Under the pieces are notes generated by a model. It saw only the letters and a program-made list of their open reading frames with translations. It had not been told where the DNA came from and did no database searches. Both the position numbers and the translations under genes were made by a program. Of a stretch of DNA of 32,000 nt, positions 1-2,406 are shown one piece after another; within the stretch, counting starts at the first letter, position 1; each line of letters starts with the position of its first letter. The stretch comes from an uncultured Chloroflexia bacterium. Its GTDB lineage: Bacteria; Chloroflexota; Ktedonobacteria; Ktedonobacterales; JADMIN01. Where the stretch lies: the NCBI GenBank assembly GCA_963718915.1, contig CAVRAI010000007.1, positions 420,001 to 452,000 on the forward strand, given 5' to 3'.

Positions 1-963
1 GCGCTGCTGGCGGCGTCTCTTCCCCATGAACACACACCCGATGCGCTGATCGCCGCGATAGCCGATCTGGCGCCAGTGGACTTCGCGCGCTGGCTGTTGC
101 TGGCCGTCGGGCAGGGCGACGACATCCCGCTGGATACGCCTGCCCTGCTGCGTTGCCAGGGTGATCTGGCAACTGCCCAGCGCTACGTAGATCGCCACCT
201 GCGGCTGACGGGCCAGCGGCGAGACCATCTGACGCAGGCGCTTTCCGCGCCAGAAGCCGCCCAGCAGGAGTTGCTGGCGCTGCTGCGGCGTCACGAATTG
301 GCCATACGTGACATTGAGTCGGCGGCGCGGGACGAGCGCGAACGCGCGGCGAAGCGATTGCGCGCGCTGATAGCGCCTCCGGTCGCGCGGCTGCCCGCCT
401 GGCTACCGTGGAAAGCCGATTTCTCTCGTTACTCGTCGGTGGCGCTAGCGCCGCTGGTCTTTCATCCCGGCAACGTGACGGCTTATTCCGCTGGTAGCTC
501 GCGCGCGTATGAAGATACCATCCCTGGCAATCCGCTGCTGCTGCTCATCGGCGTCGAGCGCGTACTCAGCGATGCGCCACGCCGCGGACCGACACCGGCC
601 GCCCTGGCGCTGCTGGCGAATCCCGCCGACCACTGGACGCGCGTCTATGGCATGCTGGCCGACCCGACCCGCCTCCACATCCTCAGGCTGCTGGCGGAGC
701 GGCCCCGCTTCGGCCAGGAAATCGCCACACTGCTCGCGATCTCGCCAGTGATGGTGTCGCACCACATGGCGCTGCTGGCAAAGTATGGGCTTGTCAGCGT
801 CGTGCGCGCGGGCCAGCGCCTCTACTACCTGCTGAACAGCGCGGCGATCACCAATCTATTTGCCGCGGGCAGCCAGTTCATCCTTGAGCCAGGAACCACA
901 CCACAGGAAGGAGGAAGCGACGAGATATCCGGGCAACCTATCGGCGTGCAGAAGAAGGAGCAG
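1..963 (+). CDS. ArsR/SmtB-type winged-HTH protein with a long uncharacterised N-terminal region. The 5' end lies off-window. The frame has no stop and continues into the AtpD-like ORF.
   Basis: Frame 1 is open from nt 1. Codons at about 652-840 read [61 protein letters not shown], a typical ArsR HTH pattern. The next stop in frame is at 2404-2406. Confidence 0.7.
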
Positions 964-2406
964 ATGACGATGACCAGTATAACCAGCCTCGCGCCCGCCA
1001 CTGCGACGCGCGTCCAGGGCATCGTGACTCAGGTATTGGGGAATGTCGTAGATATCGCTTTTCCCGGCGACCACATGCCAGCGCTGTATAGCGCTATCGA
1101 AACGGAGATGCCAGGGCAGGCTGAGCCGCTGACGCTGGAGGTCGAGCAGTTGCTGGGCAATAGCGCAGTGCGCTGCGTCGGCATGGGGCCGACGGATGGC
1201 ATGATGCGTGGCCAGATTGCCTGGGATACCGGCCGGATGATTGCGATGCCGGTTGGCCCGAAGACGCTTGGCCGCATCTTCAATGTGCTTGGCGAGCCAA
1301 TAGACGGGATGCCCGCGCCCGACGGCGCGCCCCGCTGGCCGATACACCGGCCCGCGCCCAGCCTCGAAGAGCAGGCGACGAGCACCGAGGTGATGGTGAC
1401 GGGCGTCAAGGTGATCGATTTGCTGGCCCCGTTCACCCGTGGCGGCAAGATCGGCACATTCGGCGGCGCGGGCACCGGCAAGACGATCATTATCAAGGAA
1501 CTGATCAAGAATATTGCCCTCGAATCGAAGGGATACTCGGTCTTTGTTGGGGTCGGCGAGCGCACCCGCGAGGGCAACGACCTCTACGACGAGATGAAAG
1601 AGGCGGGCGTTCTCGATAGCGTCGCCATGGCGTTTGGTCAGATGAACGAGCCGCCGGGCGCGCGACTGCGTGTGGCGCTCTCAGGCCTGACGATGGCCGA
1701 ATATTTCCGCGATCAGGAGGGCCGCGATGTGCTGCTCTTCATCGACAATATCTTTCGCTTTACCCAGGCGGGCGCGGAGGTCTCCGCGTTGCTGGGCCGG
1801 ATGCCATCGGCGGTGGGCTACCAGCCGAATCTGGCGGAGGAGATGGGCCAGCTGCAGGAGCGCATCACCTCGACCAAGCGTGGCTCGATCACCTCGATGC
1901 AGGCGATTTTCGTCCCCGCCGACGACTACACTGATCCTGCCCCGGCGACGACCTTCGCCCACCTCGACGCGACAATTGTGCTGGAGCGCGCGCTGGTGGA
2001 TCGCGGCATCTTCCCGGCGGTGGATCCGCTAGCCTCGGCCAGTCGCATCCTTGATCCGCAGGTGGTCGGCCAGGAGCATTACGATATCGCCCAGGGAGTC
2101 AAGCGGCTCTTGCAGCGCTACAAAGACCTGCAGGACACCATCAGCATCCTAGGCGTAGACGAACTGAGCGACGACGACAAACTGGCGGTCTCACGGGCGC
2201 GCAAAACTGAATTGTTCCTCTCGCAGCCGCTGCGGGTCGCCGAGGTCTTCACCGGGCGTCCCGGCGTCTACGTGCCGCTAGCGGAGACGATTCGCGGCTT
2301 CCGCGAGATTCTGGAGGGCAGGCTCGACCACATCTCCGAACTGTACTTCTACATGGCTGGAACGATTGACGAAGTGGTGGAGCGGGCGCGCCAGGCCGAC
2401 GCTTGA
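964..2406 (+). CDS. atpD: F1-ATPase beta subunit (AtpD) homologue, orphan copy
   Basis: It has its own SD (AGAAGGAG, 951-958) before ATG 964 (or 970). Motifs: N-terminal barrel [16 protein letters not shown], Walker [41 protein letters not shown], and DELSDDDK (a DELSEED variant). No alpha, gamma or epsilon genes are adjacent. Confidence 0.85.

Follow-up and report, generated by a model that had tools for sequence, protein, structure and literature searches.

An ArsR-type regulator fused to a paralogue of the F1-ATPase beta subunit in uncultured soil Ktedonobacterales

The fused reading frame and its domains

The stretch of DNA analysed here (the window) is 32,000 nucleotides long and comes from an uncultured Chloroflexia bacterium placed in the Ktedonobacterales (assembly GCA_963718915.1, contig CAVRAI010000007.1, positions 420,001 to 452,000). 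At its beginning lies a single reading frame that combines a helical N-terminal domain and an ArsR/SmtB-type winged helix-turn-helix, together called the N-module in the following, with a disordered linker and a complete paralogue of the beta subunit of F1-ATPase (Table 1). A first reading made from the letters of the window (the sequence-only reading) had noticed that frame 1 runs open from the first nucleotide up to the TGA at 2404-2406 and had supposed that the open reading frame (ORF), of more than 776 aa, has a 5' part outside the window. A stop scan and the full-length counterpart of the protein agree with both statements. The ORF listing gives the frame as 76..2406 (776 aa), and the counterpart P0001, which is 100% identical, comprises 876 aa, with 75 codons as well as the promoter and the operator of the gene located 5' of nt 1.

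The same reading had recognized an ArsR/SmtB winged helix-turn-helix behind an N-terminal region of no known type, followed by a Shine-Dalgarno sequence at 951-958 and a complete AtpD that starts with the ATG at 964. The winged helix is found again by Pfam (HTH_5, aa 221-266; HTH_20, aa 219-268; nt ~655-804), with HTH_5 scores of 36.9-38.6 bits against a cutoff of 22, and by the NCBIfam model NF033788 for ArsR/SmtB proteins (63.3 bits, cutoff 55). The C-terminal part contains in succession the Pfam domains ATP-synt_ab_N (aa 342-411) and ATP-synt_ab (aa 468-681) and the C-terminal domain (aa 686-776), and it scores 757-759 bits with the atpD model TIGR01039 (cutoff 462.85), of which positions 2-461 of 462 are covered; by this measure the C-terminal 480 aa are a true atpD equivalog. 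The Shine-Dalgarno-like string is present at the site named, and only the start codon of the complete beta subunit has to be moved: the ATG at 964-966 is not conserved, being replaced by TTG, ATA or CTG-type codons in several orthologues, and the conserved start is the ATG at 970-972.

Residues 1-399 of P0001 were modelled by AlphaFold2 with the use of 23 homologues; the model has a predicted local distance difference test score (pLDDT) of 81 and a predicted template modelling score (pTM) of 0.71, and consists of a helical N-domain that includes a helix of about 40 residues, a small beta-sheet, the winged helix and a disordered tail, which is the linker. Foldseek returns matches to the winged helix only (CzrA, SmtB and similar proteins, with target-normalised TM-scores of 0.66-0.78), and the N-domain, of about 290 aa, has no Pfam match even at E<=10, as the earlier impression of a region of no known type would lead one to expect. 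When the ArsR domain is aligned to SmtB, the metal ligands of helices alpha3/alpha3N (Cys) and alpha5 (Asp/His) are not found in it: D104 of SmtB corresponds to Ser, H106 to Ala and C61 to a residue other than Cys. There is no invariant Cys in the N-module, and its sole invariant His, H330, is located in the recognition helix. Since the metal-binding residues of SmtB are not conserved, the N-module is, as far as alignment and predicted structure can tell, ArsR-type by fold and not a recognizable metal sensor.

Among 1.8 billion representatives, searched exhaustively, the N-domain was detected in only 31 clusters (50% identity), and a word-indexed homologue search with the N-module gave only 5 matches. 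Most of the 31 clusters are stand-alone proteins of 360-415 aa, which stop soon after the winged helix, ending in a polar/acidic C-terminal tail. These regulators (P0127, P0129-P0148; loci L091-L098) have the same two-domain N-module as the fused protein, at 29-40% identity, but differ from it in that they end with a stop codon and in that the next gene, where it can be read, is not atpD but codes for a transporter of the major facilitator superfamily (MFS or MFS_3). In L092 and L095 regulator and transporter gene share 4 nt, whereas 24 nt separate P0127 from the next gene. The window also contains an MFS_3-type transporter gene at 17533-18876 (minus strand), which belongs to the Pfam family of the genes coupled to the N-module; no such regulator adjoins it, and its presence is probably a coincidence.

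Table 1. Features of the fused gene: positions in the window and basis of assignment
Feature	Position (nt)	Strand	Basis or remark
Operator DNA (predicted) at the fused gene's own promoter	just upstream of the window		AATAGTTTAATTGTAATTAAACTATT
Fused ORF	1..2406	+	5' end cut by the window edge; full protein 876 aa
N-terminal domain, C-terminal two thirds; family-specific, helical, ends in a small beta-sheet	1..621	+	AlphaFold2; no Pfam family
ArsR/SmtB-type winged helix-turn-helix without known metal-binding sites	622..885	+	Pfam, NCBIfam, Foldseek
Disordered Pro/Gly/Glu-rich linker	886..969	+	pLDDT 32-40 in the AlphaFold2 model
Internal Shine-Dalgarno-like AGAAGGAG	951..958	+	conserved in the loci with DNA
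Conserved internal ATG, likely start of a beta-only isoform	970..972	+	Met here in all 10 fused proteins
Complete F1 beta-subunit paralogue	970..2406	+	TIGR01039, intact motifs, fused-beta clade
Beta motif: P-loop	1462-1485	+	
Beta motif: catalytic GERTREG	1549-1575	+	
Beta motif: Walker B	1732-1755	+	
Beta motif: ADDYTDP loop	1903-1938	+	
Beta motif: DELSDDD	2158-2181	+	

Conservation of the fusion, its linker and its internal start

A search of about 5.8 billion proteins yielded P0001 and nine further fused clusters (745-881 aa), the latter with 63-90% identity over 91-100% of the query, and in all ten the order is N-domain, ArsR helix-turn-helix, linker and complete beta. The contig of one of them, P0008, ends within the gene, and the common architecture has a length of 863-881 aa. 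A second search seeded with the most divergent member, P0010, added no fused cluster. The sequences stem from independent JGI, NCBI (SMAG, megahit k141) and ENA assemblies, mostly of short reads, and the fused frame was seen in the DNA of three species-level GTDB genomes and of two further metagenome contigs. At the DNA level six loci were compared, namely the window and five orthologous loci: the linker measures 123 nt in the window and 132 nt in the five others, and it is in frame and free of stops in all of them. The deep-branch proteins P0008-P0010 are also fused, through linkers of 60-100 codons that cannot be aligned, and across the orthologues the length of the linker varies from about 40 to about 100 aa.

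A real fusion of a helix-turn-helix domain with the beta subunit had been the first option of the sequence-only reading, coupled with the caveat that a single indel within 836-960 could create it from an ordinary gene pair. On this alternative the true locus would be an ArsR gene with an ATGA junction, translationally coupled to a separate atpD, and the fused frame an artefact of assembly or sequencing. It can point to the +1 frame of the window, which is indeed open from 836 to a TGA at 965-967 that overlaps the upstream ATG, to other frame disruptions in the window (an aminotransferase gene near 9940-9980 and a decayed PadR gene at 2419-2610) and to P0125, a frameshifted copy from another ENA metagenome-assembled genome (MAG). 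However, one identical fused frame is present in the independent JGI, NCBI SMAG and ENA assemblies, the +1 frame hits earlier stops in the five orthologous loci, and the deep-branch members are fused despite wholly different linkers. The alignment of orthologous loci that had been proposed as a check reveals a single fused frame throughout and no ATGA ending of the ArsR gene. The ten fused clusters together with the +1-frame stops dispose of the single-indel caveat, and we consider an artefact barely conceivable.

The ratios of nonsynonymous to synonymous substitution rates (dN/dS), calculated by the Nei-Gojobori method between four fused loci, are 0.22-0.56 for the N-domain, 0.12-0.31 for the winged helix, 0.24-0.33 for the linker in the fused frame and 0.046-0.076 for the fused beta; all four parts of the gene are under purifying selection. 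These values for the individual segments argue that the linker is translated in the fused frame and that the fusion is kept by selection, and together with its conservation they favour the first option of the sequence-only reading. Judged from this comparison of loci, the gene is a genuine fusion that is selectively maintained in a narrow lineage of uncultured soil Ktedonobacterales.

The frame disruptions elsewhere in the window are without bearing on the fused ORF. The class I/II aminotransferase gene (9518-10688, plus strand) is split by a frameshift into the overlapping ORFs 9518-9979 and 9939-10688 and is probably one of the disrupted genes to which the earlier reading had referred; its orthologue on the contig of P0007 is a single gene of 389 aa, and the split in the window is either an assembly indel or a pseudogene. 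The PadR-family remnant (minus strand) retains 54% identity over the C-terminal domain and has an in-frame stop and a 23-aa deletion, and it is thus a pseudogene in the genome of the window; in L002 a PadR gene is the convergent downstream neighbour of the fused gene. P0125 (266 aa; NCBI/ENA MAG, contig of 13,468 bp) is an N-module homologue with 75% identity whose frame breaks inside the winged helix (…LLAERPRSARKSPRCSTSRP), and represents a frameshifted copy or an assembly indel in that other MAG.

The internal start is conserved as well. Of the six loci with DNA, five carry AAGGAG and one carries AAAGAG, in each case at a distance of 9 nt from the invariant ATG, and the ten fused proteins have Met at the start of beta with Glu-rich codons before it (KKEQ.TM, REQETHM, KEEHM), even where the linker is unalignable. 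A consensus scan detected no sigma70-like promoter inside the ORF, and a separate promoter for beta within the ORF was therefore dropped. Because the internal Shine-Dalgarno sequence and the ATG are conserved, internal initiation on the same mRNA could plausibly give a beta-only isoform, and the earlier suggestion that the sequence could yield both a beta subunit and the fusion is plausible as well.

Two further features accompany this start. A second strong Shine-Dalgarno-like string, GGAAGGAGGAAG, is located at 906-917 of the window and at the same position in all fused orthologues, where it encodes the conserved linker motif QEGG (EGG is also found in P0008-P0010); there is no start codon 5-12 nt after it, and the string may represent a motif of the protein, a site of ribosome pausing or a relic. 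The first codons of beta (window 970-990) contain a 9-nt tandem repeat, ATGACCAGC (Met-Thr-Ser), which also marks L002, L004, L087 and L088 and whose copy number varies between orthologues (TMTSITS versus TMTSMTSMTS), with several in-frame ATGs following the internal Shine-Dalgarno sequence.

But how could a regulator and a beta subunit have come to share one reading frame? Since the stand-alone relatives stop after a comparable tail and are coupled to the next gene, we infer that the linker is composed of the regulator's former C-terminal tail and the former intergenic Shine-Dalgarno spacer. The ancestor would have been a pair of translationally coupled genes, a regulator followed by a duplicated atpD, just as the stand-alone relatives precede MFS transporter genes, and this pair would have lost the stop codon of the regulator and kept the ribosome-binding site of atpD.

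The beta domain as an extra copy of atpD

The fused gene is solitary in every context retrieved, with no other atp genes close by. Upstream of it lies a divergent gene for an inositol-phosphate synthase or a BON-domain protein and downstream a convergent PadR, MFS or kinase gene, and the fused gene is monocistronic. It is thus not encoded between atpG and atpC of an atp operon, as are the canonical betas of the Ktedonobacterales (470-490 aa, 75-83% identical to the fused beta), which belong to ordinary atpI-B-E-F-H-A-G-D-C operons. Both kinds of gene were found in GCA_036557205.1, with the fused gene on contig 82 (HEY7341252.1) and atpG-atpD-atpC on contig 149 (HEY7343128.1), and in GCA_036273675.1, with the fused gene on contig 7 (HEX5155739.1) and the whole atp operon on contig 150 (HEX5159010.1). 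Because a normal operon is present elsewhere in the genome, the fused beta is regarded as an extra copy. In distance-based (neighbour-joining) trees the ten fused betas are monophyletic (100/100 bootstraps) and nested in the canonical Ktedonobacterales atpD (96/100 bootstraps), which speaks for a single duplication and a single fusion before the clade diversified. The deep branches of the clade share 81-83% identity in beta and only 36-39% in the N-module.

P0011 (472 aa) was a candidate for an unfused close relative with 83% identity and was discarded as a chimera of a canonical-type N-terminal part and the C-terminal end of P0004. Its N-terminal two thirds are near the canonical P0177 beta of GCA_036557205.1, the first 41 residues being identical, and its last 86 residues are identical to those of the fused P0004; mis-assembly between the paralogues or gene conversion would account for this.

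The P-loop Lys/Thr, GERTREG, the Walker B Asp, the ADDYTDP loop and the DELSD[DE]D loop are invariant in all ten fused proteins. Among PDB entries the beta part is closest to the beta chain of 2qe7, which bears the annotation 'ATP synthase subunit beta' (E=2e-206). The scores with models of other beta types stay below their cutoffs, with 542-544 bits against 752 for TIGR03305 (beta of the alternate F1F0 or N-ATPase) and with 472-474 against 850 and 405-408 against 570 for MMOB1670 and MSC_0618 (F1-like ATPase beta of the Mycoplasma types 2 and 3). Six positions only are diagnostic of fused versus canonical betas; all six substitutions are conservative or located in the N-terminal crown domain, and none falls on the catalytic, DELSEED-loop or ADDYTDP-loop positions examined. 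Three other candidate signatures of the fused clade were given up, as they recur among 110 canonical Ktedonobacterales betas: the change of GGAGVGKT to GGAGTGKT in the P-loop (Thr in 46 of them) and the Tyr-to-Phe changes in AIFVPADD (in 10) and in GIFPAVDP (in 60).

The dN/dS of the fused beta does not exceed that of canonical atpD pairs at similar dS (0.05-0.23). As a pure nucleotide sensor would be expected to relax at its contacts with alpha, gamma and epsilon, this constraint suggests that these surfaces are still used, and from the canonical level of dN/dS and the small number of diagnostic substitutions we infer that the fused beta may still assemble into alpha3beta3gamma. The notion of a decaying or functionless duplicate, that is of a relic atpD accidentally joined to a regulator and becoming a pseudogene, would agree with the solitary position of the gene apart from other atp genes, with the decay of neighbouring genes in the window and with a codon bias below that of canonical atpD (effective number of codons, ENC, of 37-40 for the fused beta, 30-33 for canonical atpD and 45-47 for the N-module). 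However, it is at odds with the low dN/dS of beta and with catalytic motifs that are intact even across deep branches, and also with the conservation of promoter and operator, and we regard it as very improbable.

Operator, proposed mechanism and related systems

An alignment of the upstream regions of six fused loci reveals a conserved, perfect 12-2-12 palindrome, AATAGTTTAATT-GT-AATTAAACTATT, in diverged flanks. A conserved TTGACA is followed 17 nt on by the palindrome, which overlaps the -10 region, then by GGGAGG and by the ATG. Every fused locus whose sequence extends over the upstream region has exactly one copy of the palindrome core, which is otherwise absent from the 149 loci examined and from the window. 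As 12-2-12 is the classical layout of ArsR/SmtB operators, this is a predicted operator of the inverted-repeat type at the fused gene's own promoter. In the stand-alone relatives the -35 element (TTGACA) is closely followed by AT-rich sequence, which in some loci, such as L092, forms a clear palindrome. Control of the canonical atp operon through the same operator was considered and dropped, since L150, in which the atp promoter is contained, has no match to it even if 3 mismatches are allowed. That the fusion is real, conserved and paralogous and carries an operator at its own promoter we hold to be highly probable.

The sequence-only reading had thought of a nucleotide-sensing regulator or a moonlighting beta, and either role may apply. 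We propose that the fused protein binds its own operator as a dimer and would thereby repress itself. Constrained like a housekeeping beta, its beta domain has probably kept both nucleotide binding and the docking to alpha and gamma. The N-terminus of beta is located on the exposed crown of F1 and tolerates extensions, and N-terminal His-tags on beta have been used to immobilise F1. Given this position and the constraint on beta, its nucleotide state, or its capture into membrane F1 complexes, would probably set the amount of regulator that is free to bind DNA, and internal initiation at the ATG at 970 would probably supply a free beta-only isoform besides. Taken as a whole, that is as a genuine fusion combined with autorepression coupled to the state of beta, we give this proposal an even chance of being correct. 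A more far-reaching version has the fused protein built into F1 heads beside or in place of canonical beta, as a tethered transcription factor on the crown. The assembly of the membrane enzyme, or the open or closed state of beta, would then sequester or release the repressor, and transcription would read the assembly of ATP synthase or the energy state of the cell directly; we think this version quite unlikely.

The main rival to autorepression gated by beta assigns the roles differently. The N-domain would sense a ligand and drive a conditional alternative beta, made mainly from the internal ribosome-binding site, which replaces the canonical one; the fusion would then be a tolerated and mildly useful by-product of the lost stop codon, and beta the output of the system and no sensor. 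Such a role of beta as a cargo is in line with the stand-alone homologues, which are upstream regulators of a coupled cargo gene (the MFS transporter), with the retention of the internal Shine-Dalgarno sequence and ATG across the clade, with a beta that is at housekeeping constraint and slightly more codon-biased than the N-module, and with an operator that is found only at the fused gene's own promoter. But a neutral fusion should have re-separated somewhere, and it did so in none of the ten clusters. Moreover, the linker underwent at least four changes in length (slippage of the 9-nt repeat excluded), all by multiples of 3, unalignable linkers of 40-100 codons are free of stops in a 65% GC genome, and the dN/dS of the linker is low in the fused frame. 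All in all we judge beta as a mere output to be somewhat unlikely.

Several points also weigh against autorepression gated by beta. The operator is absent from the promoter of the canonical atp operon in a fusion-carrying genome and was found only at the fused gene's own promoter, so that the gene itself is the only supported target and the operator lends no support to a link with the regulation of ATP synthase. The N-domain rather than beta could hold the sensing role. The fused beta is less codon-biased than canonical atpD, which indicates expression below the level needed for a structural beta. In addition, the internal Shine-Dalgarno sequence of the deep-branch members P0007, P0009 and P0010 was deduced from protein sequence alone, and the paralogy is based on MAG bins, of which GCA_036557205.1 also contains a second, partial canonical beta (P0178), suggesting some strain mixture in the bin.

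How does the fused protein relate to known systems? With the ArsR/SmtB autorepressors that use 12-2-12 operators (SmtB and CzrA, and the non-metal members HlyU and NolR) it shares the winged-helix fold, the Pfam and NCBIfam membership and an inverted repeat of this type over its own promoter. Different from these, it has no metal ligands at alpha3N and alpha5 and adds both an N-domain of no known fold family and a C-terminal F1 beta. Its catalytic motifs and its level of purifying selection are those of the canonical Ktedonobacterales AtpD (TIGR01039; 77-82% identity), from which it is set apart by its location outside the atp operon, the N-terminal extension of about 400 aa, six clade-specific substitutions, a weaker codon bias and an operator of its own. 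A beta-type catalytic subunit with a large N-terminal extra region is also known in the Mycoplasma MMOB1670 or G1-ATPase beta (PDB 9io5), whose family is named in NCBIfam for the gliding-motility ATPase complex; the fused protein, however, scores far under the cutoff of this family (472 versus 850 bits) and is a true atpD equivalog. We know of no DNA-binding role for the N-terminal extension of the G1-ATPase beta. Rho likewise binds nucleic acid through its N-terminal domain, behind which lies an ATPase domain that is homologous to F1 alpha/beta, but it represents a distinct family of homohexameric RNA helicases with an OB-fold RNA-binding domain, and the fused protein scores as atpD and not as Rho.

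In BirA, NadR and PutA a functional enzyme domain is covalently linked to one that binds DNA. In PutA, association with the membrane takes the repressor off the DNA, and the sequestration logic that we propose for the fused protein would be the same. A further example is ArsRM, a fusion of ArsR with ArsM (PMC10190100). None of these four proteins contains a rotary-ATPase subunit, whereas the partner of the DNA-binding domain here is one that normally works only inside a hetero-oligomer. We found no report in the literature of an F1 beta fused to a DNA-binding domain, in line with the sequence-only reading, to which no architecture of this kind was known. The public records examined name these proteins 'F0F1 ATP synthase subunit beta' or 'F-type H+-transporting ATPase subunit beta', and the regulator half is thereby hidden.

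The F1 beta subunit is among the most conserved and most studied of proteins. If beta indeed gates the repressor, the fused protein would sense adenine nucleotides or the assembly of ATP synthase as a natural one-component system and would be a ready test case for the moonlighting of a rotary-ATPase subunit in transcription. Independent of this, the gene would document how a coupled gene pair turns into a fusion with the internal ribosome-binding site retained. With the operator sequence, the stand-alone relatives and a canonical operon in the same genome at hand, the hypothesis can be put to the test.

Some other features of the window were noticed in passing. The segment 18925-24372 (plus strand) holds a WYL-domain regulator of the HTH_11/PafC type, whose 3' end overlaps the longest ORF for the 2-oxoglutarate dehydrogenase E1 component (19980-23057, plus strand) by about 60 nt, followed by the E2 gene (23047-24372); the true start of E1 may be located further downstream. 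There are two strong excursions of the AT skew, one of -0.31 at 26001-27000 over an ORF (25846-27003) without a Pfam match and one of +0.27 at 3001-4000 over a minus-strand MFS gene.

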